In this document: piece by piece, positions 3,726 through 27,506 of the stretch
How the letters are laid out: each line of letters starts with the position of its first letter
How positions within the stretch are numbered: the first letter of the stretch is position 1
From: a virus
Virus genome (UHGV): UHGV-1351772
Strand: one strand, 5' to 3'
DNA: 64,000 nucleotides
Program-made: the position numbers and the translations under genes
Notes under the pieces: generated by a model
The model's database searches: none
What the model saw: only the letters and a program-made list of their open reading frames with translations
What the model was told of the DNA's origin: nothing

Positions 3726-4109
3726 TTAACCGTTATCATGAGGAACGGTTACCCAACTGTGCCATTTCTCGGAGTATAACCGATAGGCCACTTTCGGGTT
3801 TTGGTCTACATTACCTGCGGGGTTTTCAGACCACAGAACCCAACTGTACAATTCATAAGACGAAGTATTACGAATACTGGAGTTACGTGTGATATAATAG
3901 CATTTACCACGTTGGAAAATCTGCATTCCTGCATAGTGTTCATTCACCATGTAATAGTGAAATGCGACACTCATTACAGGATCGGTACAGAGTCTATTTA
4001 CGACGTCTAAAACGTCGGGATACGCCTTTAAAACTTTTTCGAGAAAACTTGCTAAGTTCAGACCGGCATACGGCGCGGTTGGCTCTGTTGGCTGCGGCGG
4101 TAGTAACAT
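3726..4109 (-). CDS. hypothetical protein (start uncertain)
   Basis: 127-aa ORF overlapping the 3' end of the helicase gene by 115 bp; the true start may be an internal Met. Confidence 0.35.
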   Translation of the reverse strand: MLLPPQPTEPTAPYAGLNLASFLEKVLKAYPDVLDVVNRLCTDPVMSVAFHYYMVNEHYAGMQIFQRGKCYYITRNSSIRNTSSYELYSWVLWSENPAGNVDQNPKVAYRLYSEKWHSWVTVPHDNG

Positions 4110-5703
4110 CAGCTTTCCTTACAATATACGGTGAGGTGGCTATCTTAAACGACAACACAGAATCACTCAGTGATTTTTGACGCGCATTCAAGTAATTGCA
4201 ATGCTTCGGTATCGAATAAGAATGGAATAACCACACAACGGGATCGAGTTCACCCCAGTCGTTGTGGAGAATCTTACGTGGACGTCCGGCCATCTGGCGG
4301 TTTAACTGCTGGTCTTCCACAGGAGTAGTAATGTACATGTGCACCAGCCCCGGTTTGTCAACCGCAGTACCTGCTTTCCCTGGTGTTGAAATAGAGAAAT
4401 CCGCTTGAATAAAGTCGTCATACGAATCCCCTGCGTTATATTTCGCAACCATCAACGCATGGAACTTATCAGATTGTGCAAGCTTCTCTCGCACGTAATC
4501 CGTAAAGAACTCACACATTGCGACAGTTGCGAACAACACCAACACTTTCTGACCAGGTTGATAACCTGCCAGATACGTCCGTTCTATTACATCCCAGACC
4601 ATATCCGCGTACGACTGATGAAGGTTTTCGCTAATCAGCTTCCCTTCAAACAGTTTGTGGTTATACGGGGTCATCTTCGTTGCCCACCACGCAAACCGTT
4701 TATTCTCAATTCGGTAATACAACGCTTTCACATGTACCGCAGGAATAATCGGAATGGTGATACGTGCCTCTTGTGGGAAACGTTCTTTATACCGTTCTGC
4801 CAAGAACGCTTTCGATTCACCCGGTTGGAGTGTAGCCGACATCTCAACAGAGGGCGGCGGATTCAACATAATTCCAGCCATGTACACCAAGTGGAAATGT
4901 TCGTGCACTTCATCCATCGATAAGAACCCAACACCTAGCGTGTTATAGAAATCATCGATGTTCACTGGGTTAGTCGCAGCGGTGTTGATATATTCTTTCA
5001 AAAACCGCTGTAACGTCACTGTAGAGACGATAATAACTTTGATGCCACGTTTATCCAACTCACCACTTTCACCCATTTCTAGCGCTTCGTAGACCGCTTG
5101 TACGCCCTGTATAACCAAGACGTCCTCTTTCGATTCACGAAGTCCAGTAGGATCTTCCGTTAAGTCGAATAACCATTTAGAGATGTACGTGGGTCGATGA
5201 ATCAATAACGTTCTTACCCCTTTACGAACCATCACTTTCATGTTCGTCTTCGACTTACCCATCCCTGTACCAATCTCAAAGATGGTTTGTAAGCGGTTAG
5301 GCTGGCACGCCGTTTCTACAACGCCATTCTGATAAAAGAAGCGTGACGACTCATCTTCTTCTATCATGTTAAAGCCGTAGTTTTCAAACGTACAGCGGTA
5401 AGGTGTTCCCTGGGTTAAGTGATGCTCGTAGAGTTTAAAGTCAATTGCAAACTCAGCGGCCGTTCGGTTAATAATGATTCGTAAACGTTCGGAAAAATTC
5501 CGGTGGAATATAAAGGTACGGATAGAAGGAATATGTGCGTAATACGGATCGCCACGTTCGGTGATGATTCTTCCGTATTGTTTACCCATTTTCGGGGCGT
5601 GCATATTCTCTTCTGCCCACTTTAGGATTGCCGACTCTATAGGTCGACAAGGGACTTCGACCCTCACACCCATACTCGTAAAGGTCATGTGGAATTCGTA
5701 CAT
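3994..5703 (-). CDS. SF2 helicase-like ATPase (DExH box)
   Basis: P-loop GTGMGKSKT and motif II MDEVHEHF (DEVH) in the right order in a 569-aa protein. Confidence 0.55.
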   Translation of the reverse strand: MYEFHMTFTSMGVRVEVPCRPIESAILKWAEENMHAPKMGKQYGRIITERGDPYYAHIPSIRTFIFHRNFSERLRIIINRTAAEFAIDFKLYEHHLTQGTPYRCTFENYGFNMIEEDESSRFFYQNGVVETACQPNRLQTIFEIGTGMGKSKTNMKVMVRKGVRTLLIHRPTYISKWLFDLTEDPTGLRESKEDVLVIQGVQAVYEALEMGESGELDKRGIKVIIVSTVTLQRFLKEYINTAATNPVNIDDFYNTLGVGFLSMDEVHEHFHLVYMAGIMLNPPPSVEMSATLQPGESKAFLAERYKERFPQEARITIPIIPAVHVKALYYRIENKRFAWWATKMTPYNHKLFEGKLISENLHQSYADMVWDVIERTYLAGYQPGQKVLVLFATVAMCEFFTDYVREKLAQSDKFHALMVAKYNAGDSYDDFIQADFSISTPGKAGTAVDKPGLVHMYITTPVEDQQLNRQMAGRPRKILHNDWGELDPVVWLFHSYSIPKHCNYLNARQKSLSDSVLSFKIATSPYIVRKADVTTAAANRANRAVCRSELSKFSRKSFKGVSRRFRRRK

Positions 5704-5745: not shown

Positions 5746-7845
5746 TTACTCAATGATAGTCGCGGCCACCGTATTGTCGTATAACGACGCCGGACGTTTA
5801 CGTGACGTGTAGAAACGCACGTTGTCCAGGTTTTTCTGTTGGCCTTCGAATAACAACATCGGTACAGCTGAACGCATCGCAATCAACGTGTTGTGATCCT
5901 CGAAACGTTTGCCATCCATCACATCAGCATCTTCACTATCAAACCCAACCGCCGGGAAAGGATTGGTCGGTGATTCAACGCGTGATATCGCCAGCATAAT
6001 CGCGATGTGTGTCATCGGAATACCACCGAGCTTACGTTGGATATATTTAAACACATCAAATAACGCGTGCGTACATTGTTTCTCCGTAGCACCGCGCATC
6101 TGAACCAGTGTCGTTGGTTTTACCTTACCTGACTTCTTGCTCAAACGCATTGAGTCATCAGAGAACTGTTCGAAAGTATCCGATTTATCAGACGCAACCG
6201 AACGAAGTTTCAATTCTAACCCTGCTACAAACTCCGCCATAGATTCAGACCGATTCGTATAAATTAGTATCGGCCAACTCGGTTTCCATCCTTTCAGGGG
6301 AATCCGTACCAGCTTCTTCGACGGGAAGGTAATGTTATCGCGCTGTTTCAGGAAGAAATGTAAGAAGGCTTTCGAGAAGTTACCACAAACCCCCATACGG
6401 ACGTCAATGGGATCTTCGGCCAACACATTCCCAGCTTCATCCAACCGCAAAAAGGTCAGTTCGTTAATCTCCGGCAATGCCGTTTCGTCGATCACTTCCA
6501 AATCATCGTGATACGCGATTTGGCTGATTTCAGAATAGACTTCATCGGAAATAACGAGTTGGTATTCATCCCAATTACCGTACTGCGGTTTCTCCCGTAA
6601 ACTCAATCCTTTTACGGAGTTGTGTTTATACTCACCAAGATAATCCCGCATTCTTGGAGTCAGCACCAGATTCAGCAGATAGCGTAAGAAGTCCAGGTGT
6701 TTCGTTGAGAGAATCCCCTGTGTACCCTTTTCAGATATCGAGGTTGAGGCCAAGTGGCCTGGTGACGTTCCCGGCGAAAGGTTATAAATCAAATCACCCA
6801 TGCAGGTTGCACAAATGCTTTGACGCGCCATCCCCTTACAACACATCGCGGTACGAAACTCAATAGGTTTGCCTAAGACTTTCTCAAACTCCCCTTTCTC
6901 GAATCGTAACCACGGGCCACCCACACCTTCAAAACGATAACGCATTCCCACCATCGCATCGTACTTCTTACGCTCCAGTTTACTTTCTGTAAACGTGTGG
7001 CGATGAACGTGATGTGTACCACAATCGTCGTATTCGAAATACATTAACACGTTGGCTGCTAACTGTAGCTTACGTGACGCATATTCCGCATCGGCGATTT
7101 TATCGGTATTATACAGGTGAGTACGTGACGTCGCTCCCGCTTCTTTCAGACGGCTAATTACAGAATGTAGACCCGTAAAGAAACCTTCCCATACCTGGTT
7201 GGAATAAACGCGAGAATCAATCTCTGATGTTTTCCCACGTATATACGCCTGAAGAACCTGGTTCATTTTGATGGTCTTATCCAAGACCGACATCACCACA
7301 GGGTTTAAACGAAGTTGTGGGTCTTTGAAGATATCTTCGATAAGAAGATACGCTTCTTCGATCATATCCCGACCTTCTTCGTCGTACCCAGTAGGATACA
7401 TTTGTGCCCACTGATGAATCTGCGTAAAATTTCGGTGTTGGTAAATTTCCATCATCGTATCGTAGTCAATCGTGACGCAATACGACAACAGATTTTTCAC
7501 CGATAAGTTAAACGCATCCGCATAGACGTGCTGCTGCAATAAATAGCGGGTATCTGCTAAATCCACACCCGCTTTACGTGCTGCCACAGCTGCCAATGAC
7601 ATAAACTTCAGATGTGCGTCATCTGTAGCGGTGTCGCCATGTTTATACGCCATTTGCGAACTGATTGGGATCTGCGGATAAAATCGTGTTAGCCCCCAAT
7701 AAGGCCAACTGATTTTAATGTGGCGTCCTGACATGTTTAAGGTTATCCCGTCATCGAACGTCACTTCATATCTGCCGCGCAATAGCCACACCTGATCCGA
7801 GTTCAGTTTACACAGATCACGCACGTGAACTGGAGTGCCCTTCAT
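5746..7845 (-). CDS. multisubunit RNA polymerase beta-prime subunit, C-terminal fragment (set A)
   Basis: SISEKGTQGILSTKHL matches the conserved beta-prime block AAQSIGEPGTQLTMRTFH; start overlaps the stop of the upstream beta gene (ATGA). Confidence 0.6.
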   Translation of the reverse strand: MKGTPVHVRDLCKLNSDQVWLLRGRYEVTFDDGITLNMSGRHIKISWPYWGLTRFYPQIPISSQMAYKHGDTATDDAHLKFMSLAAVAARKAGVDLADTRYLLQQHVYADAFNLSVKNLLSYCVTIDYDTMMEIYQHRNFTQIHQWAQMYPTGYDEEGRDMIEEAYLLIEDIFKDPQLRLNPVVMSVLDKTIKMNQVLQAYIRGKTSEIDSRVYSNQVWEGFFTGLHSVISRLKEAGATSRTHLYNTDKIADAEYASRKLQLAANVLMYFEYDDCGTHHVHRHTFTESKLERKKYDAMVGMRYRFEGVGGPWLRFEKGEFEKVLGKPIEFRTAMCCKGMARQSICATCMGDLIYNLSPGTSPGHLASTSISEKGTQGILSTKHLDFLRYLLNLVLTPRMRDYLGEYKHNSVKGLSLREKPQYGNWDEYQLVISDEVYSEISQIAYHDDLEVIDETALPEINELTFLRLDEAGNVLAEDPIDVRMGVCGNFSKAFLHFFLKQRDNITFPSKKLVRIPLKGWKPSWPILIYTNRSESMAEFVAGLELKLRSVASDKSDTFEQFSDDSMRLSKKSGKVKPTTLVQMRGATEKQCTHALFDVFKYIQRKLGGIPMTHIAIMLAISRVESPTNPFPAVGFDSEDADVMDGKRFEDHNTLIAMRSAVPMLLFEGQQKNLDNVRFYTSRKRPASLYDNTVAATIIE

Positions 7846-10082
7846 TATTCATCGCCCCTTTTCATTTTCACCAATTCAAACCCTTCACAGCTGTGAATGT
7901 TTTTCATCATCCTGTCAATCTGTGAATCCCCTAACGGGAATTTATTTCGGTCTACCAGTGGACCCGGATTAGACGGGGTTTGAGATCGATAAAGCCCTAC
8001 TAAAATCTCACGATGCACCGCAGGGTTATTTGCCCTGTCGTGAACTTCTTCGTAGTTACCTGGACCATAACCCGCTAACAGTCGTTCTTCCGAAGGACCA
8101 GCCCATTTTAGCGTTTTATAGTTTATCGGATACGAACCGCGGCCTTGGTTAGACGCGTCTATCGTACCCAGATAATTCAGATACATTGACGAGATACTGG
8201 AAAACTCACGACCTGTTTTATCCAGACGTAATGTTTCCACACCACCTACGTAAAACTCATTTTTTGTCCATTCCTGTTTACCATCGAAATTAGTAATCAG
8301 GAGTTTGGATTTACGCGGTTTAAATTCACCCAACCGTTCACTGATATCGACTGGCGTGTCGTCAAGTTCATGTGGTAAGTAAATACGGATTGTAAAATCG
8401 TAAATCTCTTTGAAAAGTTCGCGTTGTAAATCCTCCGTAGGATGCGTTGCCTGTAGTGTATTGGCCCATTCTGGATTATAGCGTGATAGATAATCCATCA
8501 GGATTTCCCAGCTCTCGCTGATACGTCCTTCATCCAGCAATGGTTTGAGACGCATTTTCAACTGTTCAGACGCAGCTGACCAATACATGTGGAATAATGC
8601 TGCATAAGTCGAGCGACGAATTACAGCGTTCATCGAACGTAAAACGTGAACACGTTCACCGAATTCGTTAATCGGCATCTGTTCAACGGGTAATACACGT
8701 CCAACAATCCCTTTCGTACCCGAGCGGTCGGTAATCTTAGACGACACCGTTACCGGGATCGGATAACGAACAGCAATACGAATGGTATACGTGTTGATGG
8801 GATCGCTGAGTCCACGTTGTACTGGCGAGGTCAACTTAGAAAGAATCTGCTGACTGACATTTTCTTTACCGTATTCACCACGACGAATTGCTTCATCAAT
8901 CACCACGCGTATCTCTTCACGAAACTCGTGATAGACCTCGTACGTTTCAGAAGCGAACGCTTTTTCCAACAACACACACGCTTTCGGCGACCAGATAATA
9001 TTTTTGTCACGGGACATCGAGAAATAGAATCGTACGATGGCATTGTAATAGTCTTTCAATGCTAATGCGTATTTATCCAGTTCTCGTTTGTTCTCTTCGG
9101 TACAAGAAATATTGTTAGCACCATTCGCGCAAGACGTTTCATCACGCCACACCTGGATATCGACGATACGTGTACCGCTACGCTCCATCAGTTCTTTGTC
9201 GCCTGCAAGACGTGCTTTATAATGGACGGGATCGGCATCCACATATTCGCAACTATCAAAGAACGGAGAGACGTGTTGAGTTTCCCCAAGCGACGCATCA
9301 ATTGCACCGTAAAGCTCATCGAAACGACGCGATGCAATGACCAACCCATCGTCACGAATAGCCTCTCCTACATCCGGGAAATACCGTGGGACGCGATTAC
9401 CGTTCGGATCGATGTAACCGTAAGTATCCAGTAAAAACTCGTCTTCACGTAGCGTCTTTTCAACGATTTTCAAACCATAACCGTGGAGTTTTTGGGCGGC
9501 GTACTCAGAGATGGTGTAAGAATCCTCGATGATATCAGAATGCGAAATCGTAACGGTTGGTAGCACGACGCTATCGGCGTACTCGCCTTCCACCATACAC
9601 GACATCGTTGTAAGGATTTCATCCTTTTCCAACTGATCGGTTTCGCCACGTAAAATACTACGCAGTTTCATCGACTCACGTTTCTCAGATGAGAAGATGT
9701 TGTCGTGGTTAGTATAGAAGTTAATCTCTAGCACATCTATCATGGTTTTACCGCCCTTCATTTCTGCACGGCGGAAGAAGATAGCATGTTCTAACGCTTT
9801 AGAATCCCCACGACGACCATAACGTGTAAACGTCGCGCGGCGCTGACGACCGTCTTTGGTCATATAGTGGCAGATGCTACCGGGATCTTCTACAACGTCG
9901 TTGAACAGAAAATCGTGGTAGTTTATATCTGCCCCTGTAAAATGCGGCGATGGTTCAGGATTGTCGATAGGGACCGCAGACTTCATATGGTTGCCTACCA
10001 TCGATGCCCTTGCACCTGATACTTCGGTGATATTAATCTCACGGTCAGCCACACTGCTCATTAGCTCTACTGGCGTTTTCAT
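7845..10082 (-). CDS. multisubunit RNA polymerase beta subunit, C-terminal fragment (set A)
   Basis: KITDRSGTKGIVGRVLPVEQMP aligns with bacterial beta [24 protein letters not shown] (K..R.G.KG.......P.E.MP conserved). Confidence 0.7.
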   Translation of the reverse strand: MKTPVELMSSVADREINITEVSGARASMVGNHMKSAVPIDNPEPSPHFTGADINYHDFLFNDVVEDPGSICHYMTKDGRQRRATFTRYGRRGDSKALEHAIFFRRAEMKGGKTMIDVLEINFYTNHDNIFSSEKRESMKLRSILRGETDQLEKDEILTTMSCMVEGEYADSVVLPTVTISHSDIIEDSYTISEYAAQKLHGYGLKIVEKTLREDEFLLDTYGYIDPNGNRVPRYFPDVGEAIRDDGLVIASRRFDELYGAIDASLGETQHVSPFFDSCEYVDADPVHYKARLAGDKELMERSGTRIVDIQVWRDETSCANGANNISCTEENKRELDKYALALKDYYNAIVRFYFSMSRDKNIIWSPKACVLLEKAFASETYEVYHEFREEIRVVIDEAIRRGEYGKENVSQQILSKLTSPVQRGLSDPINTYTIRIAVRYPIPVTVSSKITDRSGTKGIVGRVLPVEQMPINEFGERVHVLRSMNAVIRRSTYAALFHMYWSAASEQLKMRLKPLLDEGRISESWEILMDYLSRYNPEWANTLQATHPTEDLQRELFKEIYDFTIRIYLPHELDDTPVDISERLGEFKPRKSKLLITNFDGKQEWTKNEFYVGGVETLRLDKTGREFSSISSMYLNYLGTIDASNQGRGSYPINYKTLKWAGPSEERLLAGYGPGNYEEVHDRANNPAVHREILVGLYRSQTPSNPGPLVDRNKFPLGDSQIDRMMKNIHSCEGFELVKMKRGDE

Positions 10083-11908: not shown

Positions 11909-13615
11909 TTACTCGCCGAATGCACCAAAACCAGACACTGGCGCAGGAGTTGACATATCGCTGCCGCCAAAGCTACCGAAGCTACCCAGGCTCGTAGGTG
12001 CAGACACAGGGGCAGTTGGAATATTCGACAGGATATTCGAACGGTTCTGACCACGGTTGAATTCTTGGTACCCTTCTTCCACTTTATTCATCAGCTGCGC
12101 TGTTTCTGCAGCTAACTGGTTCGTGTACTGAAGGTCAGTTGTTGTACCACAATGCAGACGTGCTTTCATGAACGACGCATGAGTATAATACTCAGGCAGC
12201 TCACCATCGATTTCAATTTCAATACGTGAAACCACCCCGACGATACATGTTACGGTCATCTTACAACGAATACGGTTGTGTTTAGTCACTTGCAAGAATA
12301 CGCCTTGTAAGTCACTTAAGAAGCGACGCGCTAACACATCCGGTAATCCGTCTTCAGTTAATGCCCCAACGTTGTGTTTTGACACTTGCAGCAGAGGAGG
12401 TGTTGCAATATCCGCCATACGGTTATCGTAGAAGAAAGTCACTTCACCGATAAGGTTACGAGTGACCACAGGCCCCAGTAACATGGCTAAATCAAATGCC
12501 ACCAACGAACCCTGAGTAGAATAGTTATTACGTCCTACCCAATCATCGGTGCGTTCAATTTCACCAAAACCACGACGAGCCGCGACAGCCAGCGAGTGCG
12601 CAATTGCAGCGTCCACGTCTTCGGGATTAATCACCGCATTACGCAAGTCGCACAGTTTGAATGCTGCACGGTTCGCAACGTTCCAACCGCTAGTCATATC
12701 GGACGTGGCGTTGGATATGGCTGTTCTAAAAGCCTTCACCAACTCGTAACTGTTGAAATTACGCATCACACCGATCTGGCTAAGTTCAGATTCTACCCCA
12801 AGAGAATGATCTCCTGCGAAGAAACTGTCTACTGCGCTCAACTCCGTTTCAATCCCCATGGTATTAATGAAGGAATTGGAGATCGCTGTCACGAAAGATT
12901 CTGGTCGGGTTAATTGACTAGACATCAACTGTGGCGCACGCTGGCAATTAGCGGAGATAACGGTGTTGTTATCCAGCTCAATCTGCTCACCAGCTTTCAC
13001 CACTTTACGTACCATATCAGCTGCTTTCGCGGTAGAAATAACGTCAATGGTGTGCTCTACATAGCTGTCTGCGGTTAATGTCTTGGACAACACATAGTTG
13101 TCTATCAAACGGAAGGAATCCGGGTTGATACGACGTCCACCGAACGCATCAGTGATATACGTACATTGTAACCCGTATATTTCGTTGATATACAGAACCA
13201 TGTCGTCCGGCAGGTGATTAAACATGGATCGCTCTGCCTGGGACGTATACCCGGAAACAACATAACGCGTTTCCTGAGTCCGTGTGTCGTTTAACGAGTT
13301 CGAAACAATAATCGCCACGAAGTTATACACACCAGTATCGCGAGAATTATACGCAAATTGGATTGGTTGCGATTCGTTATCACTCACGTTAATGAATGGA
13401 CGTTCAATGCCTGTTGGGGTATTGTCGAAACCCACAATCTGCCCCAGGGCTTCTTGATAAGCCCGAGAACCTGTTGCTTTATCACCGTGTTCTGCAACCA
13501 CATCCACTAACTCATCCAAAGCGTGCTGCGATTCAAAGAACCCAATACGACGACGAATCTGCTCTGGGATTTCGTACACTGGATACATTTGTAGTTTCAA
13601 AAGTTTCATTGCCAT
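11909..13615 (-). CDS. hypothetical protein with FG-rich C-terminal tail
   Basis: 568-aa ORF ending ...SLGSFGSFGGSDMSTPAPVSGFGAFGE; adjacent to and co-directional with the previous FG-tail gene. Confidence 0.6.
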   Translation of the reverse strand: MAMKLLKLQMYPVYEIPEQIRRRIGFFESQHALDELVDVVAEHGDKATGSRAYQEALGQIVGFDNTPTGIERPFINVSDNESQPIQFAYNSRDTGVYNFVAIIVSNSLNDTRTQETRYVVSGYTSQAERSMFNHLPDDMVLYINEIYGLQCTYITDAFGGRRINPDSFRLIDNYVLSKTLTADSYVEHTIDVISTAKAADMVRKVVKAGEQIELDNNTVISANCQRAPQLMSSQLTRPESFVTAISNSFINTMGIETELSAVDSFFAGDHSLGVESELSQIGVMRNFNSYELVKAFRTAISNATSDMTSGWNVANRAAFKLCDLRNAVINPEDVDAAIAHSLAVAARRGFGEIERTDDWVGRNNYSTQGSLVAFDLAMLLGPVVTRNLIGEVTFFYDNRMADIATPPLLQVSKHNVGALTEDGLPDVLARRFLSDLQGVFLQVTKHNRIRCKMTVTCIVGVVSRIEIEIDGELPEYYTHASFMKARLHCGTTTDLQYTNQLAAETAQLMNKVEEGYQEFNRGQNRSNILSNIPTAPVSAPTSLGSFGSFGGSDMSTPAPVSGFGAFGE

Positions 13616-15365: not shown

Positions 15366-15385
15366 AGCCCCAGGATATCCTGGGG
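15366..15385 (-). terminator. hairpin, possible terminator
   Basis: gccccagg-atat-cctggggc perfect hairpin between genes; the downstream U-tract is weak. Confidence 0.35.
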
Positions 15386-15407
15386 CTATGTTATAGTTTT
15401 ACATTAT

Positions 15408-16052
15408 TTAGATAATATCGTCAAAATCGTTAGTTGGTGTTGGGGCTTTTGCAGCAGATTGGTTGTTATAACCTCCGCCGTTGCCGCCGTTATTGTAACC
15501 GCCGCGACCGTAACTACCACCACCCGCATTATTAAACTCACGCGGTTTGTAGTTGTCACGGAAATCTTCCAGGAATACATCCGCATTTTTCAGGAACGCG
15601 CGTAGCTGACGCTCTGCCAGTTCCAGATCGGAGACCAGTTGTCCATTACGGAAAACACGATAACCTTTCGGATAAGTGAAATAGAATTTCTTCTGACGCG
15701 CACCAACCCCTGGGATCTCGCCGCTCAGTGCAAAGAACGGTGTCAGATTTTCATCACGACCTACGTGTAAGCTAACCGGTGCCTTCTTACCTTTTGTATC
15801 TTCCCATTTGAAAACAACTTTTTCGGGTTTCTGCATCACCGTACGCAGGGTTTCAAAGATATCAACACAGACAGTATAACCTGCGGTGAAATAAAGACCT
15901 TCGCCTTTACCAAAGGAATAGTGGAATTTCATCAGTTCCACATCACCATTGAACTCGTTCAATTCAATGCCCAGTTTACGAGTACGGCCCTGTTGATCCG
16001 GCTCAGTCTGCGGGTAAAGCCATTTCTCTTTAAGGAAGTTTTTATTGACCAT
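15408..16052 (-). CDS. single-stranded DNA-binding protein-like (Gly-rich linker plus acidic DFDDII tip)
   Basis: C-terminus GGGSYGRGGYNNGGNGGGYNN...TNDFDDII mirrors the bacterial SSB Gly-rich linker and acidic tip (E. coli SSB ends MDFDDDIPF). Confidence 0.5.
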   Translation of the reverse strand: MVNKNFLKEKWLYPQTEPDQQGRTRKLGIELNEFNGDVELMKFHYSFGKGEGLYFTAGYTVCVDIFETLRTVMQKPEKVVFKWEDTKGKKAPVSLHVGRDENLTPFFALSGEIPGVGARQKKFYFTYPKGYRVFRNGQLVSDLELAERQLRAFLKNADVFLEDFRDNYKPREFNNAGGGSYGRGGYNNGGNGGGYNNQSAAKAPTPTNDFDDII

Positions 16053-16110
16053 TTACTTATCCTATTTTTACATTTTCGGAGTGCTCAAACTAACAAAACG
16101 ATCTGTAAAA

Positions 16111-16947
16111 TTAGCGAGACAATCTACGAAGGAACTCAATGACAAAGGGCTCGTTAACCAACTTCAAGCAACTGTAAATACGATCCATGGTCGTATCTTG
16201 TCGCCAGTGGTATTTCTCGGCGGTATTCAACACCACCTTACGAACCTTTCTGTCAAGTGGGGAGAACATATACCCATCGCCAAATAGCGTTAGAAACGCC
16301 TTGTTAAACGGGATCTGTTCGGGTTTACCGTAAAGCTTCGTGTACCATTCTAACCGACCTTTAATCTTGCCCGTGTGTGATTCTAGCAGATTCAACAGCG
16401 GGAAATCTTTGTAGGCCAGCAGATCGGCGGGGTAATGGGTTAAAATCAATGTGTCATGCTGCCCTTTCGGAAACACATCGAAGCTTTTGAATTGCTCAGG
16501 GTATTTTTCACCGTATAACTTTAACGTATCGTGTTCTAACGCATTAAAGTGGTGCTGGTTAGGTGTCATCTTTTCCTGCCCTCCCGCAATCGTACGGAAC
16601 GCTGCTTCGGGGAAGATTCTGTTCGCACTTTTATACGTACAGATATAGGGGACACATAGCACCGAAGGCGCTACCGCTTTCGCGGTAGCGTTAATAGAAG
16701 CAATATCTTCTTCAATCGATGCCAGCAACACTTCAGGTGTTAATCGTTCACGATTCGTTTCAAACGCGTAAAACGCGTTACGGAACAACGTCCGTAGATT
16801 CAGGTAAATATCCTGATACTTGTGGATAGGGACAGGACCCTTCCAATCGGCATATTCTCCTTCATGGAGAAGCCCTTCAAAAGCCAACGATGTAGCAATT
16901 GACATTTGATAAAACCCAAACGTGCGATCAACACTGATTGGGGTCAT
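16111..16947 (-). CDS. hypothetical protein (278 aa)
   Basis: ORF immediately downstream of and overlapping the nuclease gene (ATGA). Confidence 0.5.
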   Translation of the reverse strand: MTPISVDRTFGFYQMSIATSLAFEGLLHEGEYADWKGPVPIHKYQDIYLNLRTLFRNAFYAFETNRERLTPEVLLASIEEDIASINATAKAVAPSVLCVPYICTYKSANRIFPEAAFRTIAGGQEKMTPNQHHFNALEHDTLKLYGEKYPEQFKSFDVFPKGQHDTLILTHYPADLLAYKDFPLLNLLESHTGKIKGRLEWYTKLYGKPEQIPFNKAFLTLFGDGYMFSPLDRKVRKVVLNTAEKYHWRQDTTMDRIYSCLKLVNEPFVIEFLRRLSR

Positions 16948-18092
16948 TTGATGCTCCTGATAATGTCAGTGACAATTTGTGCATCGTATTTAAACGGCAC
17001 TAATGCTTCTAACAAAATCGCTTCCACATTCTCTTCAGAGATGGTTTCCTCGACCTCTGCGTCGATGGCAAAACCGGCTGCGAGAATTTGCTCCTCTTCA
17101 GGCGTACGTATACGCGTACCTGAAATATGGAATGAATATTGTGATTTCCAACGAGTGATGGCTTCCGCCAATGGAGAATCAGGGTAATATTCAATTTCCA
17201 ATCGTCCTATCATTGAGGACGGATGAGTATCGATGTACTCAAGCGCAGAGAGACATTTCGCGTACTGCGATTCATAGTCCTCCTCCGCAGCAATTTTAAT
17301 CTGCGGGCAAGCGCGTTCATTAACCAAGAAATAATCTCTGGCTAAATCAGGAGTGAAATCGACAATAGCAAAGCCTTTGTCCTCTTCTTCACCCATTGCC
17401 AGGCGATCAGGGCTGCCTGGTACACGAATCTTACCCAATTGTTTCCTACGATGATCGTGATGGATGATAATCAAATGCTTGACTAACGGTTCCCAAAAAT
17501 CCGTATGGAAAAAGCGGGTAGACTCAACGGGAACTTGGAACTGAAAGCAGCCATGCATAAAGCAGAAATCCATCTGCTGTATACCACGCGTGGCTAATAA
17601 TTCAGCCATTTCCTGTTCTGTTGCGGTAGCATCAATGGATTCAGAACCCAGGGCTTTATACTCGTCCTGGACCCAACCGACTGTCGCTTCTAACGCCTCG
17701 TCGTAAAACACGCCAATCTTATCCAGATACAAACAATCTGCACCCACCGCCTGATTTAACTCTTCGACGATTTTCGATTGTTTGTGATCGTGGGAGGGTG
17801 TTCCTTCCAAGACACGAATAGCAGTATTCGTCTGTTTGGCCCAGAGCAATAACCAAGTTAAAAACCCTATGGCTTCCTGAGAATCTTCTTGCCGCAAATG
17901 CCGGGAATCATCAAATAAATCACCAGCTATATAAATAGCGTCAATCGTATTATCGAACCGTTCTAAGGTTTCCTTGAGCACGTTAACAATGTGCCACGTC
18001 GGTACACGACGGTGCAGTAAATGTACATCGCCCGTTGAGAAAATGCGCTTAACGCCAACTGGTTTCGGTGGCGGATTAGTAATCCTCTTCAT
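16944..18092 (-). CDS. Mre11/SbcD-like calcineurin-type phosphoesterase (nuclease)
   Basis: Ordered phosphoesterase motifs: GDVH (I), IAGDLFDD (II), EGTPSHD (III), FMHGCF (IV), IIHHDH (V). Confidence 0.6.
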   Translation of the reverse strand: MKRITNPPPKPVGVKRIFSTGDVHLLHRRVPTWHIVNVLKETLERFDNTIDAIYIAGDLFDDSRHLRQEDSQEAIGFLTWLLLWAKQTNTAIRVLEGTPSHDHKQSKIVEELNQAVGADCLYLDKIGVFYDEALEATVGWVQDEYKALGSESIDATATEQEMAELLATRGIQQMDFCFMHGCFQFQVPVESTRFFHTDFWEPLVKHLIIIHHDHRRKQLGKIRVPGSPDRLAMGEEEDKGFAIVDFTPDLARDYFLVNERACPQIKIAAEEDYESQYAKCLSALEYIDTHPSSMIGRLEIEYYPDSPLAEAITRWKSQYSFHISGTRIRTPEEEQILAAGFAIDAEVEETISEENVEAILLEALVPFKYDAQIVTDIIRSIK

Positions 18093-20086: not shown

Positions 20087-20445
20087 CCTCCCATGCTTTC
20101 ACATGGGCACAGACTATATCATAACCGTAGGTATTGCTACCCGTAGGTCTCCCCCACTTCGCCGCTAAACTAAGCAGCTACTCTACTCGGTTTTACCCTT
20201 TCGATAGTCGTTGAACGATTTTCATCGCTGCTGGTTATCCATTATCACAACCCTTAGCATTATTGGTTAGCATAGGTTATCTTACGAATTGTTTCTGACT
20301 TTCGCCACCCTGTCGGGATCGTAAGCTTTAGGGGTTTCCAGCAATTCGAGGGATACGCACTAGAGGTTTCCCGTCTAGTGGGCCAGTGTTTAGCATTAGG
20401 TGCTTTGATGACGCGATCAGAAATACGCAGAGAACATTGTGTTAC
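20084..20445 (-). other. group I self-splicing intron (ORF-less), boundaries approximate (+/- 20 nt)
   Basis: Minus-strand core elements in canonical order: P aattgctggaaa (20335..20346), Q aaccagcagc (20227..20236), R gttcaacgacta (20205..20216), S atgatatagtct (20111..20122), P9 hairpin cccatg-tgaaag-catggg (20090..20107), with a G before the exon-2 frame. Confidence 0.65.
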
Positions 20446-21759
20446 ATCTGTCAGTACCGCTGAGATGAACAATGTCTGAATAGAAAGTTGAACCAATGTT
20501 GGGTTACGCAGAACTTCCAACATTAAGCCGAATCCGCCGGGGGATTCTTTAATCAACTCATTAATAATTTCATGTACCAACGGTACATACTGCATTGCCG
20601 CAAATGCAATGATGCGCTCACATTGTCGAGGTGTATAATCACGTCGACCTAACTTGTTCTCAATGTGAACACTCGCCAACGGAACCAACCAACGCCAAGG
20701 CGCAATAACTTTCAACGCATCATGAGGTTCAGAGATAGGAGAGATAGTCACACGTCCGCCCCACGGTACGTGTGTTGACCCGAGTTTTGCCCGATAGAAC
20801 CCAGGTTTACCTTCCATCACTTCCTGACGATGGTCAATATAGAAATACGCAAGCTGTCGATTCGCTTTGATCGCACGACGAATAATAAATCGTGGTTCGA
20901 TACGGCGTGCATTCGTGTACAACAACGCCACATTTTTTACTGCGTCGATAGCGCTGGTATAAACCGGATCGATAAAAATACCTTGTCGGCGCTCCTCCGT
21001 AACGATCAGTTTTGATGAAATAATCGGAAGGTGTCTTGGAAAGAATGAGAACGATTGTTCCTGAAAGAACTCACGCCATTCTAAGCGCACGCGCTCACTC
21101 TCATAACGGTTATTTTTCGTTGGTGGATAAATCTCCTTCCAAGCTTCCGGAGACGTAAGGATATTAAAGACGGTTCGATGGTGGTCGATAAAGTTTCGAA
21201 TTCCCCGTTCGAAGCCATGTTCGCCGAGTATTCTTTTCACCACGCGAGCACGTGTTCCCTCGTCCTTTTCTGGATGGTAGTACGGATCGATTAGCCACAG
21301 CAGTAAATCAGACCCGCGTTCTACCGTCACTTTGTTACGATTAAATTTTTTCAGCTTAGAGCCAAAGAAGGCATTAAAGAGAGACCAAAAACGTGGATTG
21401 ATAAAGTTACCCATCTCATCGGGAGCGCGTAACCAGACATCAGACGTAATCCGATGTTCAGAAACAACATGTCCGCAATGTGGGCAACGAAGCCCAAGAT
21501 TATAACGATGGGTAATAGGTGATTCGCAGGTCAGACTGCAAATAGGAGCCGAGTTGAGTGTTTCATCAACGATTCGGTTTTGGAGTATTTGGTTAATCAT
21601 CTCCGACGCTTCGATGGTATCCATCGTTGCAGCAACGTCATTGATAATAATCGGTGGTTTGTAGCCTTTTTCCTCCGCTTCTTGTATACAGTCACGTAAC
21701 ATCTTGTCGTGACTAATTAGTCGCCCCGAAATCCCGTAATATTCTAGTTTATGTTCCAC
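20260..21759 (-). CDS. multisubunit RNA polymerase beta-prime subunit, N-terminal part (set A), exon 1; last ~55 codons are probably intron read-through
   Basis: Cys cluster CSLTCES...CPHCGH (zinc ribbon), GKPGFYRAKLGSTHVPWGGRVTISPI matching [27 protein letters not shown], and VLRNPTLVQLSIQTLF matching VLLNRAPTLHRLGIQAF; homology stops ~25 codons before the expected NADFDGD. Confidence 0.6.
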   Translation of the reverse strand: MEHKLEYYGISGRLISHDKMLRDCIQEAEEKGYKPPIIINDVAATMDTIEASEMINQILQNRIVDETLNSAPICSLTCESPITHRYNLGLRCPHCGHVVSEHRITSDVWLRAPDEMGNFINPRFWSLFNAFFGSKLKKFNRNKVTVERGSDLLLWLIDPYYHPEKDEGTRARVVKRILGEHGFERGIRNFIDHHRTVFNILTSPEAWKEIYPPTKNNRYESERVRLEWREFFQEQSFSFFPRHLPIISSKLIVTEERRQGIFIDPVYTSAIDAVKNVALLYTNARRIEPRFIIRRAIKANRQLAYFYIDHRQEVMEGKPGFYRAKLGSTHVPWGGRVTISPISEPHDALKVIAPWRWLVPLASVHIENKLGRRDYTPRQCERIIAFAAMQYVPLVHEIINELIKESPGGFGLMLEVLRNPTLVQLSIQTLFISAVLTDVTQCSLRISDRVIKAPNAKHWPTRRETSSAYPSNCWKPLKLTIPTGWRKSETIRKITYANQ

Positions 21760-21770
21760 GCCGAATCCTC

Positions 21771-21814
21771 AACAAAAAAAGAGAGGGAAGGGACAGGGGG
21801 TTTTCCCCTGTCCC
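21771..21814 (-). terminator. strong intrinsic terminator
   Basis: gggacagggg-(g)tttt-cccctgtccc hairpin followed on the minus strand by CTCTCTTTTTTTGTT, directly after the stop of the 615-aa gene. Confidence 0.7.
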
Positions 21815-21843
21815 TCAACTACTGCTTACTACTTACCAACTTA

Positions 21844-23691
21844 TTAGAAAGTCGGACGCCAGTCAGTTGCAGCGAAGGACATACCGAAATCGCTACCAAA
21901 TGCGTTAGGACCGCTACCAGACAGCGCGAAGTTCTCATTACCCGTGTTAACAAACACAGAGTGAGTGAGGCTGTTCGCTGCGGTAACACCATTCACCTGG
22001 AAGTTGCAGTTTTCAGTAATGTATTCCACCAGTGCTTTACCAAACAGCGGATTGATCGCCAGGTCAGACGCTTCACCCGTTACCTGCGGCTGTTTGCTAC
22101 CGAACATGGACGCAGCCATTTTCAGCAGGTACAGACGCTGGTCACGCGCATTCAGATAGCGGTGAGAGTAGGACTGTGCACTGATGTAGTCGATCGCATC
22201 GCGTTGGTTATCACCCACTTTAGTCAGAGCGGAAACCAAGTCCATATCCTGGAAGCTGCGTTTCTGGCTGTTGCTGAAATACTGACCAGAGATGGTCGGG
22301 CAACCGGCAATAACAACGTGTTTGCACTCGAAGTTGGTGACATTGCCCAGCAGTGCTTTGAAGCGAGTGCTGAACTTAGTCGCGCCGTTGCTGGCCATGT
22401 TATCCAGGATATTGAACAGGGTGTACAGTGCGTTGGTGTTACCCATCCCGATTTCGCTCAGGAGAGTAGACAGGCCACCGATACCGTTACCTGCACGATG
22501 GTTCACCACCAGGGCCGCAGTCGGGTTAGCGAAGGTGTCCAGGCATTTCTCGATAACTTCACGGTTACCGTCGATTTTGCTCAGGTCAGGTTTTTCGCTG
22601 CCCCATTCTACATACTCCAGAACGCGGGAGAAGCGGCGATCGGTTTTGTTCAGCGACTGCATGAAACGTTCACGCCAGCCACCAATAGTGGCGATTTGTG
22701 CGAACGCGGCCAGTTCAATCAGCTGACGCTCGATAGGTGCCATTGCCCCAGAGGACTGAGAATCCATCAGGGAAACAACCACTTCGGCTTCCAGCTGACG
22801 CAGGTCCTGAGTACCGTTAGTCAGGGTTTGAGGTTTACCTTTATGGCGGAGGTTGATGTAACCAACACCTGCAACGCTCGGATAATTCTGGAGGCGTTCA
22901 GAAGAGAACAGCGTCGGGTTATTATCGTTGTTGCCAGTGCGAGTGTGGTCAACCACAACCATCAGGTCAGCACGTTGTGCAGAACCGTTAACGTCAGTTA
23001 CAGAACCTTCTTCAACTACGCTGACTTGCGCGGTGAAGCGATCAGAACGGGTCATTTTCAGGTAGCCCAGGTAGCCGGAATGACGACCGAAGATACCCAA
23101 TGCAATCTGGCCCATGAGCTGGTTAGCCCATTCTTCGTTCATGGTTTTACCCAGTTCCGGTACGCAGTTCATTACCATGAACTGTACGCTTGGCAGATTG
23201 TGCTGAGTTGCAATCTGGTTAGTGATGTTGTTCATCACACCTTCTTGACTGAACAGCTGCGCCAGGGTGTAGTAGTTTTCTTTACCGTTGATTTCGTAGA
23301 AACGGATGGACTGGCCATGTTCAAAGAACAGGATACCATAGAGCCATTCGTTATGGTTATCGCCGGACGGACCAGCCACGTATGCAGCAGAACCCATTTC
23401 AGAGTTGATGCCGTCAATAACACCCCAACGGAAGTTACGCAGGTATGTGTTCTTCTCCGCCATCTTCTCAATCAGGCTAGTGAACTGAGAAGCAGTGGAC
23501 ACGAAAGACATGTATCCGAAAGCTTTATCGAAAGTAGAGATGTTTTTAGACATCCCACCAAAAGCGTTGGCCGCATTGGTATTATCCACAGTAGCAGCTC
23601 CCGCGCCACCGAAAGACGGAATTGGATCTGCAGCGGAACCAGCAGCACCAGTCACAACGTCGTTTTGATTGTCAATAAACTCTTTAGCCAT
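21844..23691 (-). CDS. abundant 615-aa protein: candidate chimallin (phage-nucleus shell protein); alternative is major capsid protein
   Basis: Strong optimal-codon bias (ggt, cgt, ctg, aac, ttc), two tandem promoter motifs upstream and a strong terminator downstream; ~67 kDa with Gly/Ala/Ser-rich N- and C-terminal segments; directly upstream of the beta-prime N gene, as chimallin is in phiKZ (recalled synteny). Confidence 0.45.
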   Translation of the reverse strand: MAKEFIDNQNDVVTGAAGSAADPIPSFGGAGAATVDNTNAANAFGGMSKNISTFDKAFGYMSFVSTASQFTSLIEKMAEKNTYLRNFRWGVIDGINSEMGSAAYVAGPSGDNHNEWLYGILFFEHGQSIRFYEINGKENYYTLAQLFSQEGVMNNITNQIATQHNLPSVQFMVMNCVPELGKTMNEEWANQLMGQIALGIFGRHSGYLGYLKMTRSDRFTAQVSVVEEGSVTDVNGSAQRADLMVVVDHTRTGNNDNNPTLFSSERLQNYPSVAGVGYINLRHKGKPQTLTNGTQDLRQLEAEVVVSLMDSQSSGAMAPIERQLIELAAFAQIATIGGWRERFMQSLNKTDRRFSRVLEYVEWGSEKPDLSKIDGNREVIEKCLDTFANPTAALVVNHRAGNGIGGLSTLLSEIGMGNTNALYTLFNILDNMASNGATKFSTRFKALLGNVTNFECKHVVIAGCPTISGQYFSNSQKRSFQDMDLVSALTKVGDNQRDAIDYISAQSYSHRYLNARDQRLYLLKMAASMFGSKQPQVTGEASDLAINPLFGKALVEYITENCNFQVNGVTAANSLTHSVFVNTGNENFALSGSGPNAFGSDFGMSFAATDWRPTF

Positions 23692-23739
23692 TTTACTTAA
23701 TCCTTATAAGGTTTAATACAATTGTAGTGTTGGTTCACG

Positions 23740-25193: not shown

Positions 25194-27506
25194 TCATTCG
25201 TCGTCAAAAACCTCTTCTTCGTCTTCATCTTCTTCGTCATCCCCTGCCCTCTCCGATTTCTTAACGTATTGTACTTCCGCCAATTCCTTGTACAATTCGT
25301 CTTTCTCCTCGGCCTTGTCGTAGAAATCTGACAACAACCTCATCCTGTTTTTATCCATCATGAACACACCTAAGCATTCGAGAATGTGATAGTACGGTTC
25401 AACCGTAGAGAAAGCAGTACGACGGATATCTGCAATATCGATCAGTTCTTTAGGGATACCATAGTTTTCCACCAAATGTTCTGGCAGAATCAGTGTTTTA
25501 TATTTACGGAAGTTTGTCTCCTCAAACCACGCCGATGCACCGTTCTTGATAATCGGATCTTCGATACTGTCAATCCACTCTTTAATCTTCGTTTTGTTTT
25601 CCAATGTTACCGGAAGCTTCACTGCATCATACGGCGGTTCTTCCAAATAACCAAACTTCGGACCAAAGATAGCATTATACATTCGGTGGTAATGGTAGTT
25701 CTTCTCATCCTTCTCGTTATAAGCGCTACGTTCCTTGATGTTCGTCGTTTTCAAATACCCTGGATTCCCAGAACGAATAGAATCCATAATCGTGTGTTCG
25801 ATTTGGGCAACCTTTTCCAGCAACGGAATGATTTCGATCTGATCGCCACGGGCAACAACTTCACATAACCCTTTGATGGTGTTCTTAAACTCCTTCATGA
25901 TAATCGGAGGAATGTTAGACGTACGTAAAGACACACCTTTTACTTCCAGCTCGGGATCTTTTTTCAGCTGGCCTTCCTGTCCAGTAATCAATGAGAAGTA
26001 ATGTTTTGCTTTAGTGGTTAATGCAAACGAATCAAACTTAAATTCATTCTTCATTGCATACAGGAACAAACGCTCCTTCGCCACACCGATGTTTGCTGAC
26101 ATACTCGCCATCAAGTGCCGTAAGTGCTGTGTCGCAATATAGATCATCGCATTGGAAACACGGGTAGCTACCTCACCGTAATGTTTACCGGTGTACCAGA
26201 TTGCCCACCATTGCGCAGTCATCATTGTAGAGTCAGTATCAGATACTACCCCTACACGACGAACCACATCCGGCATTCGAGCAATATTGATTGGTAAGTT
26301 TTTCGTGGTAAGAATATTGCGAATCAGTAGCGCGTATTTACCGATCGTTTTCTGTAAGAACACTGCGGAACGAATTAATTCTTTATACCCATCCTGCTGT
26401 TCCCACGGCAACGGTTTTTTATTACCATCAAGTTTCTTAACGTCACTGAACGCTTTACCCATCGGTACTACGTCGGTACGGAACTGCGAGATAATAATCT
26501 GCATATCACCATCGATGGTCTTCTCAGCAGCAACCCAGTCCGTATCAGTCCAGCCTTCGGTATCAACACGCACATCTGGGGTAATTAATGCGCCAATAAA
26601 GTCGCGCATGAATTTATCGTTGTATTTAGCCAGGTGGAAAAAATCACCCATGTAAACAAACGCCGCTCGCGTCAACGCTGATACATTACTAACGTAATGC
26701 TCAACGAACTCCATCCCCTCTTCGTTCTTAAAGTAGAAATCGGCAGAATAATGAATAACCTCCATCACCTCTTCTACCGACGGATAATGAAGCTCATACG
26801 TCTCCATACATTTCTTAAAGCTATTCCAATCGGTTAAAGTACCGATAGATAAGAAATGATCGATAATGCGTGACGGGGTTTCGTAATGTCTATTACCTCC
26901 TAATAAACGCTCATTTCCAGCATTGCCGAACGAAGTTGCAGTACGACAAGTGGACGTCAGTGTGGAGTGTGAGGACTGATTAAAAAGGATCGTGAACGGG
27001 GAGGAAAATGCGCCCGACATACCGTTGTTCAGCGTCTTGACCGCATTCTGTTCGTTCTTTTTGTTGATATTTAATACTACATTGCCCGCTGCTGCTGCTG
27101 CAAACATTTCCTTTTTTACCGCATCACGTTTCGCTACGTTAGCTGCTGTGAATTCAGACAACTTAGAACGTTTGACATGTTCGGGCAAATAAAAAGTTAA
27201 CGAAGGTGCGGAGATAATCTGTTTGTCAATGACGGTTTTAAATAACTTATCGACGGTAGTGTATTTTTCCTCACGATCGCCCGTTTTCTGATTACGCACC
27301 CACATCTTACACACGGGTGATTCGGTTGCTAACTCACCGCCAGGTGCAATAAGAGCATCAACTTCCTGACGACAAAACTCTAAAGGGTATTTTTGTGCGG
27401 TCACGTTATGAATGTATAACGCGACTTGTTCGCGGTAGGCATCGTTGACATCGATATCACGATGGTATTCATCTACCGTTAAACGAAAAGGAGAAATGTA
27501 TTCCAC
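25194..27506 (-). CDS. family-B-like DNA polymerase, polymerase-domain protein (tentative)
   Basis: VVSDTDS (motif C YGDTDS-like), KTLNNGMSGAF (motif B-like KxxxNSxYG), later KAKHY (KKRY-like), in that order; strongly acidic C-terminal tail DDEEDEDEEEVFDDE; no exonuclease motifs seen. Confidence 0.4.
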   Translation of the reverse strand: MEYISPFRLTVDEYHRDIDVNDAYREQVALYIHNVTAQKYPLEFCRQEVDALIAPGGELATESPVCKMWVRNQKTGDREEKYTTVDKLFKTVIDKQIISAPSLTFYLPEHVKRSKLSEFTAANVAKRDAVKKEMFAAAAAGNVVLNINKKNEQNAVKTLNNGMSGAFSSPFTILFNQSSHSTLTSTCRTATSFGNAGNERLLGGNRHYETPSRIIDHFLSIGTLTDWNSFKKCMETYELHYPSVEEVMEVIHYSADFYFKNEEGMEFVEHYVSNVSALTRAAFVYMGDFFHLAKYNDKFMRDFIGALITPDVRVDTEGWTDTDWVAAEKTIDGDMQIIISQFRTDVVPMGKAFSDVKKLDGNKKPLPWEQQDGYKELIRSAVFLQKTIGKYALLIRNILTTKNLPINIARMPDVVRRVGVVSDTDSTMMTAQWWAIWYTGKHYGEVATRVSNAMIYIATQHLRHLMASMSANIGVAKERLFLYAMKNEFKFDSFALTTKAKHYFSLITGQEGQLKKDPELEVKGVSLRTSNIPPIIMKEFKNTIKGLCEVVARGDQIEIIPLLEKVAQIEHTIMDSIRSGNPGYLKTTNIKERSAYNEKDEKNYHYHRMYNAIFGPKFGYLEEPPYDAVKLPVTLENKTKIKEWIDSIEDPIIKNGASAWFEETNFRKYKTLILPEHLVENYGIPKELIDIADIRRTAFSTVEPYYHILECLGVFMMDKNRMRLLSDFYDKAEEKDELYKELAEVQYVKKSERAGDDEEDEDEEEVFDDE

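Follow-up and report, generated by a model that had tools for sequence, protein, structure and literature searches.

The window that we analysed, a 64,000-nucleotide stretch of the virus genome UHGV-1351772, carries on its minus strand a gene at 15408-16052. The interval is filled exactly by an open reading frame (ORF) that runs from ATG to TAA and encodes 214 amino acids, with the stop codon at 15408-15410; translation of the plus strand over the same positions gave no open frame and many stops. Based on the ORF list, a match to phrog_3284, a profile match and synteny, we annotate this coding sequence as a ChmC/Imp6 ortholog, the putative counterpart of PhiPA3 gp61, phiKZ gp67 and Goslar gp176. 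In the encoded protein, a predicted folded domain is followed by a disordered linker and, at the very end, a short acidic tip, a tail that resembles the C-terminus of SSB, the bacterial protein that binds single-stranded DNA.

Family assignment and predicted fold

The window protein matched phrog_3284, a family of unknown function, with an E value of 5e-51. In a tblastn search it turned up in 62 records of jumbo phages (groups SPN3US, phiEaH2, Machina, Wellington and Derbicus), annotated in every one as "hypothetical protein", and a profile search of 1.84 billion representatives returned 62 relatives, nearly all of 206 to 270 amino acids; all ten of the distant relatives scanned against PHROG matched phrog_3284. 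Pairwise BLASTP of the window protein against phiKZ and Goslar ChmC gave no match, and recognizing the homology required profiles and a bridging sequence. The bridge was a relative from the profile search (P0040), with identities of 51% to PhiPA3 gp061 and 47% to PHIKZ067. In hhalign, the window clade aligned with PhiPA3 gp61, phiKZ gp67, Goslar gp176 and their relatives at 99.5% probability (E = 4.7e-23), and the folded domain, with the low-complexity tails removed, still aligned at 98.3% probability (E = 1.1e-14, 110 columns). One relative, P0014 (SPFM9, SPFM9_00272), was excluded from the alignments as block-scrambled: it carries blocks of about 20 residues of SPN3US gp237 in reversed block order, which looks like 60-nucleotide line-order scrambling of the genome record, not biology.

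Gene order points to the same family. The window shares with SPN3US, phiKZ, PhiPA3 and Goslar a block in the order SbcD-like, gp66-like, ChmC, gp68-like, PicA/Imp1, gp70-like and RNA polymerase (RNAP) beta, with proteins of ~275 (gp66-like), ~520-570 (gp68-like), ~530-570 (gp69-like) and ~430-460 (gp70-like) amino acids. BLASTP of the flanking genes gave matches to phiKZ gp65, 66, 68, 70 and 71 and to Goslar gp173, 175, 177 and 178, and the orthology of gp68 and gp69 is backed by a common PHROG. The block, equivalent to phiKZ gp65-gp71, starts with an SbcD-like nuclease at 16944-18092 (minus strand; BLASTP E = 1.6e-30 to phiKZ gp65 and 7.6e-29 to Goslar gp178), an annotation that is also present in SPN3US, phiKZ and PhiPA3. 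Two genes downstream of the ChmC ortholog, at 11909-13615 on the minus strand, lies the PicA/Imp1 ortholog, the counterpart of phiKZ gp69; it occupies the same relative position and falls in phrog_3141 (E = 1.9e-127) in common with phiKZ gp69 and Goslar gp174, while pairwise BLASTP against phiKZ gp69 gave no match. It is the profile homology, the shared PHROG and the exact synteny together that lead us to file the gene as a ChmC ortholog.

ChmC was described by Enustun et al. 2024 (PMC11077065). The PhiPA3 protein is a homotetramer by size-exclusion chromatography with multi-angle light scattering and binds single-stranded RNA (ssRNA) with a dissociation constant (Kd) of 58 nM and single-stranded DNA (ssDNA) with a Kd of 184 nM (PMC11077065); mutation of six basic residues (K30/K48/K59 and R35/R44/R63) abolishes this binding. 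ChmC is one of the most abundant non-structural proteins made early, is located at the phage nuclear shell, and was recovered in proximity labelling that used ChmA or UvsX, a RecA-like protein of the nucleus. PhiPA3 ChmC is found mostly at the shell and in the cytoplasm, and Goslar ChmC forms puncta inside the nucleus. Enhanced crosslinking and immunoprecipitation (eCLIP) recovered phage mRNAs bound to ChmC, and knockdown trapped mRNA in the nucleus (PMC11077065). Knockdown in Goslar left plaquing at ~4% and gave small nuclei with less DNA. In phiKZ, gp67 makes a direct complex with the import factor Imp1/PicA (gp69), at a gp67:Imp1 ratio of 2:1, from which it takes the name Imp6 (bioRxiv 10.1101/2024.03.27.586873), and it was one of the top essential hits in a phiKZ antisense (ASO) screen. 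Asesino, a close relative of the window phage, forms a nucleus, and Salmonella and Erwinia phages are counted among the nucleus formers (bioRxiv 10.1101/2024.03.27.586873). The roles with experimental support in orthologs, and by analogy those expected of the window protein, are phage mRNA binding and export and association with PicA/Imp1, not replication.

An AlphaFold2 model built on 11 homologs (model residue i corresponds to protein residue i+1) had a predicted local distance difference test score (pLDDT) of about 90 over residues ~10-170 and a predicted template modelling score of 0.71, with disorder from about residue 172-173. The folded domain, at 15540-16022 on the minus strand (residues ~11-171), has a net charge of +3 and is 15% aromatic. 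Its modelled topology is beta-beta-beta-alpha followed by beta-beta-beta-beta and a long C-terminal helix; the top Foldseek matches were PURA/Pur-alpha and SsgB, and the tandem repeats of beta-sheet and alpha-helix superposed on Whirly/PUR structures. The model thus predicts for this protein the Whirly/PUR-like fold of the N-terminal ~170-190 residues that is a trait of ChmC/Imp6. A Pfam scan of the window protein gave no match up to an E value of 10, the Whirly model included, and a family-profile search of PDB sequences returned nothing credible.

An earlier sequence-only reading of this locus had called the product SSB-like and proposed OB-fold (oligonucleotide/oligosaccharide-binding fold) prediction as a check. 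We considered a divergent canonical OB-fold SSB of the E. coli SSB, T7 gp2.5 or T4 gp32 type and rejected it on the predicted structure, which is Whirly/PUR-like and has no OB fold; OB-fold SSBs were absent from both structural match lists. The tail architecture is the single feature in favor of such a protein, the null Pfam and PDB sequence searches speak against it, and we give it practically no chance. What survives of the SSB-like label is membership in an ssDNA- and ssRNA-binding family, a tetrameric ortholog, the linker and the acidic tip; the OB fold and homology to SSB do not. The same reading had expected ssDNA binding, which agrees with the affinity of the PhiPA3 ortholog (Kd 184 nM, PMC11077065).

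The C-terminal tail and its putative partners

Beyond the folded domain, the tail of the window protein (...NNAGGGSYGRGGYNNGGNGGGYNNQSAAKAPTPTNDFDDII) divides into two parts. Residues 172-208 (15429-15539, minus strand; EFNNAGGGSYGRGGYNNGGNGGGYNNQSAAKAPTPTN) form a Gly/Asn/Gln-rich linker, assigned as disordered from its composition and a pLDDT below 50, and residues 209-214 (15411-15428, minus strand) form the acidic and hydrophobic tip DFDDII, which ends the C-terminal peptide ...APTPTNDFDDII. In PhiPA3 ChmC, condensates form through the N/G-rich stretch that corresponds to this linker (PMC11077065). Gly makes up 25% and Asn 18% of the last 44 residues, which were modelled as disordered, again with pLDDT below 50. 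The protein thus has the disordered, N/G-rich C-terminal stretch and acidic end that are a further trait of ChmC/Imp6. Among the 62 window ORFs of at least 100 amino acids, it alone has an acidic, basic-free, hydrophobic-ended C-terminus, and the G/N/Q-rich tail and the tip motif are likewise found in it only. These features exceed chance.

The two parts of the tail vary differently. Linker length in homologs ranges from 27 to 59 residues, with indels, and the tip beside it is conserved. Within the 90%-identity cluster of the window protein, FDDII is kept in the full-length members read, with a single additional residue at the end in two of them, and the linker beside it varies, as in NNGGNGGG, NSNNGGG and NSNNNGGG. 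Across the window clade the tip follows the motif [FY]-D-[DES]-hydrophobic-hydrophobic-COOH. Conservation of the tip beside a variable linker is what marks a flexibly tethered short linear motif, as opposed to mere acidity.

We surveyed the tips of 73 family members. In 23 of these, the protein ends in the acidic-hydrophobic-Pro-aromatic pattern of bacterial SSB (...DFDDDIPF in P0033 and P0049, ...PPMDFDDSIPF in P0066, SFDDDLPF in P0051, NDFDDELPF in P0046 and NFDDIPF in P0069), and two more end in Pro-x-Phe (PhiPA3 FDDEIPNF and phiKZ FDEDMPSF). The window type, aromatic-D-[DES]-hydrophobic-hydrophobic, accounts for 16/73 (window DFDDII, SPN3US SYDEFL), and the remaining 32/73 have other acidic or aromatic ends, such as VAFDGLAF in Goslar. 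The last ten residues contain no Lys or Arg in 69 of the 73. Isolates with known hosts span several of these forms: PhiEaH1 DFDSDIPF, Centimanus DFDNDVPW, RP12 SSDDIPW, FLC9 GSEDLPF, Xoo-sp14 DDLPDSF and Goslar VAFDGLAF. The SSB-like tail is a property of the whole ChmC family.

One metagenomic member (P0066, 420 amino acids) is a tandem duplication of two ChmC-like domains with the tail ...QPAVQPPMDFDDSIPF. Its end, ...PPMDFDDSIPF, is nearly identical to the ...PPMDFDDDIPF of E. coli and Klebsiella SSB, and judged by this likeness the tail could be a capture from an ssb gene.

In the published account, the C-terminal 50-70 residues of ChmC are disordered, with an N/G-rich part followed by an S/D/E-rich end read as an "electronegative cluster" (PMC11077065). 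On this interpretation the acidic end would have no specific partner; it would serve solubility and damp non-specific nucleic acid binding, and its likeness to SSB would be compositional. The charge of the last ten residues is negative throughout the family, with almost no Lys or Arg, and the tips of a third to a half of the members fit no single motif, as generic charge would allow. However, the aromatic residue, the invariant Asp and the two terminal hydrophobic residues hold their positions beside a freely varying linker, a function in charge alone does not need terminal hydrophobics, and exact DDDIPF and its close variants recur far beyond compositional expectation. We regard a purely generic acidic end as possible but doubtful.

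If the tip has a specific partner, that partner could be of host or phage origin. The sequence-only reading had quoted the strings GGYNNGGNGGG and TNDFDDII, both of which we found as quoted in the minus-strand protein, the second directly before the stop, and had proposed that they mimic the host SSB tail and so recruit, or compete for, host SSB-interacting proteins. SSB of E. coli, Klebsiella, Salmonella and P. aeruginosa ends in MDFDDDIPF (PMC5531588). The window tip has the D-F-D-D and an Ile of this sequence, and among these shared residues is the upstream Phe, which is important in stimulating PriA (PMC5531588); the hosts of the lineage are Salmonella and E. coli; other ChmC clades carry exact or near-exact host tips (PhiEaH1 DFDSDIPF, Centimanus DFDNDVPW, P0033 and P0049 DFDDDIPF), and a precedent exists in the phage protein Bas52_0087, whose FDDDIPF tip was proposed to interface with host ExoI (bioRxiv 10.64898/2026.04.29.721553). 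The resemblance to the SSB tail therefore stands as a match in D-F-D-D and Ile and as a family-wide likeness, but it stops short of the terminal Pro-Phe: where the bacterial hexapeptide is D-D-D-[IL]-P-F, the window protein ends D-F-D-D-I-I. The linker corresponds to the Gly/Pro/Gln-rich disordered linker of SSB by analogy, with no evidence of homology.

The window clade has no terminal Pro-Phe, and in the PriA complex the pocket contacts the alpha-carboxyl of the last SSB residue (PMC5531588). Moreover, tips vary widely among phages of one host species, whereas the host tip is near-invariant: phages of Erwinia amylovora alone end in DFDSDIPF, NFDDYV, SFDDIML, NFDEYL and EFDEMF. Because the tip follows the phage clade and not the host, a co-evolving, phage-encoded partner fits better than a fixed host target. 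Few host clients would be reachable inside the phage nucleus, into which TopA is the only host protein reported to be imported. We therefore consider it very unlikely that the window tip engages clients of the host SSB C-terminus (ExoI, RecQ, PriA, chi, RNase HI and others), and as judged from the tip sequences host mimicry is unsupported in the window clade; in the canonical-tip clades it is possible.

Taken as a whole, the locus is in our judgment best explained, with good though not complete confidence, as a ChmC/Imp6 ortholog of an SPN3US/phiEaH2-type nucleus-forming jumbo phage of Salmonella and E. coli, with a tip that is a putative docking motif. By analogy with the characterized orthologs, the protein would assemble as a homotetramer whose beta-sheet faces bind ssRNA, the preferred ligand, and ssDNA. 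It would be made early and abundantly, concentrate at and inside the phage nuclear shell, and bind phage mRNAs and PicA/Imp1; mRNA export, protein production and a productive infection would depend on it. The linker would supply the multivalent weak contacts that give rise to condensates, and the tip (aromatic-Asp-acidic-hydrophobic-hydrophobic-COOH) would act as a short linear motif for docking, flexibly tethered and employed in the way of the SSB C-terminal tip to recruit partners, to bind back and temper nucleic acid binding, or both. In the window clade the partner is more likely to be a co-evolving, phage-encoded protein than a client of host SSB; the obvious candidate is PicA/Imp1, whose gene lies two genes away.

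Several points weigh against this explanation. The N-terminal third of the window protein did not align in hhalign, and the positions of the six PhiPA3 basic residues are mostly non-basic here (G, L, H, E, T), in a region where the alignment is unreliable; only the RTRKL patch, matching PhiPA3 K30, is basic. With this third unaligned, nucleic acid binding by the window protein is predicted from its fold and family. With regard to the tip, our entropy analysis was anchored on an [aromatic]-D pattern that forces part of the conservation, and we use it qualitatively only. The publication itself reads the acidic end as a generic cluster, and the published tail deletions took out the linker and the tip together. 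Deletion of residues 204-251 of PhiPA3 ChmC abolished condensates and nuclear-shell localization with tetramerization and RNA binding retained (PMC11077065), and tail-less Goslar ChmC supported nuclear growth without rescuing titer.

The same family features allow a further role, in which ChmC would be a Whirly-fold, non-orthologous replacement of OB-fold SSB, coating ssDNA in nuclear replication and recombination and recruiting enzymes through its SSB-type tail. Sensitive profile methods detected no SSB in phiKZ-like phages, which was called surprising (Kazlauskas et al. 2016, PMC4889955), recent reviews of these phages mention none, and we found no canonical SSB among the window proteins scanned, a set that did not exhaust the window. 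Several features of ChmC are compatible with such a role: the ortholog is a homotetramer, with a tail in which an acidic tip follows a disordered G/N/Q linker; 23/73 members have canonical D-[ILV]-P-[FWY] ends, including exact DFDDDIPF and PPMDFDDSIPF; affinity of the ortholog for ssDNA is only ~3-fold below that for ssRNA; and the gene lies near that of an SbcD-like nuclease. The labelling with ChmA or UvsX, the high abundance, the intranuclear puncta of Goslar ChmC and the lower DNA content of knockdown nuclei are all in keeping with it, as is the reported phase separation of E. coli SSB through its linker (bioRxiv 10.1101/2022.01.17.476650).

Several findings speak against this role. The eCLIP signal lies on phage mRNAs and knockdown holds mRNA in the nucleus (PMC11077065), the in vitro preference is for RNA over DNA, PhiPA3 ChmC is mainly at the shell and in the cytoplasm, and the DNA deficit can be secondary to the global fall in phage protein synthesis. 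An ssDNA-coating role is thus unlikely in our view, although the SSB role and the RNA role are not mutually exclusive. In its broadest form, which we find rather improbable, the idea would give nucleus-forming jumbo phages their long-missing equivalent of SSB in ChmC, a Whirly tetramer that acquired or converged on a complete SSB tail as a partner hub. A DDDIPF-type tip would then have given rise in some clades to variants like FDDII, and the tail would gather partners on single-stranded nucleic acid both at the phage nucleus and within it, the candidates being PicA/Imp1 with its cargo, enzymes of recombination and replication (UvsX or the RNase H-like protein, for example) and, perhaps in canonical-tip clades, host SSB clients. 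If this were true, the phenotypes of tail deletion (loss of shell localization, titer not rescued) would stem from the absence of a docking motif as well as from lost condensation.

The identity of the gene is itself ordinary, a recognizable ortholog of a characterized and essential jumbo-phage protein. Its SSB-type tail is not mentioned in the ChmC (PMC11077065) and Imp6 papers or in recent reviews, and is apparently an unremarked, testable lead. A tip that docks would bear on the role of the essential ChmC C-terminal region beyond condensation, on the tethering of ChmC to the nuclear shell or PicA, and on which protein fills the SSB role in phiKZ-like phages. These questions are also relevant to jumbo phages for phage therapy, given that infection requires ChmC and that the lineage occurs widely among isolates of Salmonella and E. 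coli.

Expression signals and genome context

Upstream of the ChmC ortholog gene, we read from the sequence a Shine-Dalgarno AGGA at 16060-16063 (minus strand), 7 nucleotides 5' of the ATG at 16050-16052. Downstream, a consensus scan marked a terminator-like GC-rich hairpin at 15366-15387 (minus strand), which starts 20 nucleotides past the stop codon and has a 9-bp stem with seven G-C pairs; the T-tract after it is weak, and the hairpin is a pattern match and no proof of function. In optimal-codon use, scored with a list of E. coli optimal codons, the gene ranks fourth of 53 window ORFs, and the three that outrank it all lie at 50-59 kb. Both the hairpin and the codon rank would fit a discrete transcript with high expression.

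Elsewhere in the window, a phiKZ-like replication and transcription block at 3994-5703, 5746-10082, 20260-21759 and 25194-27506, all on the minus strand, encodes a DNA helicase, a pair of RNAP beta-type subunits, a further RNAP beta subunit and a DNA polymerase. Between the DNA polymerase (25194-27506) and RNAP beta (20260-21759), in the position of phiKZ chimallin/ChmA, lies an ORF of 615 amino acids (21844-23691, minus strand; phrog_8316). Its product has no BLASTP similarity to phiKZ gp54, which falls in a different PHROG (phrog_4795), and it is unannotated in 62 of 62 relatives; we regard it as a positional candidate only for chimallin. An antisense ORF of 649 amino acids (21751-23700, plus strand) covers it fully and is probably a shadow ORF.

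Megablast of the 6-kb neighborhood of the ChmC ortholog returned nothing from 50,697 phage records, so that in this set the phage lacks a close relative. The 90%-identity cluster of the window ChmC has 152 members, carried on hundreds of contigs from isolate assemblies of Salmonella enterica and E. coli, the hosts of the window lineage; the longest of these contigs are 221-227 kb. In the closed genome of E. coli strain 98232 (urine, Egypt), an 81%-identical relative is present as a circular 221,873-bp "plasmid" (L020, NZ_CP173450.1 125864-137825). These records suggest a jumbo phage of the nucleus-forming type that is maintained along with isolates from clinics or food and is recorded as a plasmid.

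Comparison with known systems

The closest known counterparts are ChmC/Imp6 themselves (PhiPA3 gp61, phiKZ gp67, Goslar gp176 and 201phi2-1 gp123), with which the window protein shares homology, PHROG, gene neighborhood, predicted fold and tail type. At 214 amino acids it is shorter than the characterized proteins (246-262), and its tip, [FY]D[DES]-hydrophobic-hydrophobic, differs from FDDEIPNF in PhiPA3, FDEDMPSF in phiKZ and VAFDGLAF in Goslar. In the wider Whirly/PUR superfamily, plant StWhy2, PBF-2 p24, T. brucei MRP1/MRP2 and Pur-alpha are 6-9% identical to the window protein, with 8-9% for the Whirly family, a likeness in structure only. Its first repeat has three clear strands, versus four in Whirly, as was likewise reported for PhiPA3 ChmC. 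An SSB-type tail of linker plus tip is not known in these Whirly/PUR families.

Bacterial SSB (E. coli SSB, PF00436) has in common with ChmC a tetramer (in the ortholog), binding of single-stranded nucleic acid, a low-complexity disordered linker and an acidic, hydrophobic-ended tip, and part of the ChmC family has the identical DDDIPF hexapeptide. The two differ in fold, OB versus Whirly, with no sequence similarity in the core, and the studied ChmC ortholog prefers RNA. Among phage SSBs, the tails of T4 gp32 and T7 gp2.5 interact with replisome partners of the phage and regulate DNA binding, and offer a model for a tip directed at a phage partner. They are long, negatively charged and C-terminal, as in ChmC (PMC2965674), but these proteins are OB-fold, are not Whirly tetramers, and act in replication, not at a nuclear shell. 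Bas52_0087, an SSB-like protein of a BASEL phage, shares with the ChmC family the combination of a phage protein with a host-type SSB tip; it differs in having two predicted OB folds and the full canonical tip, and in belonging to a phage that is not nucleus-forming.

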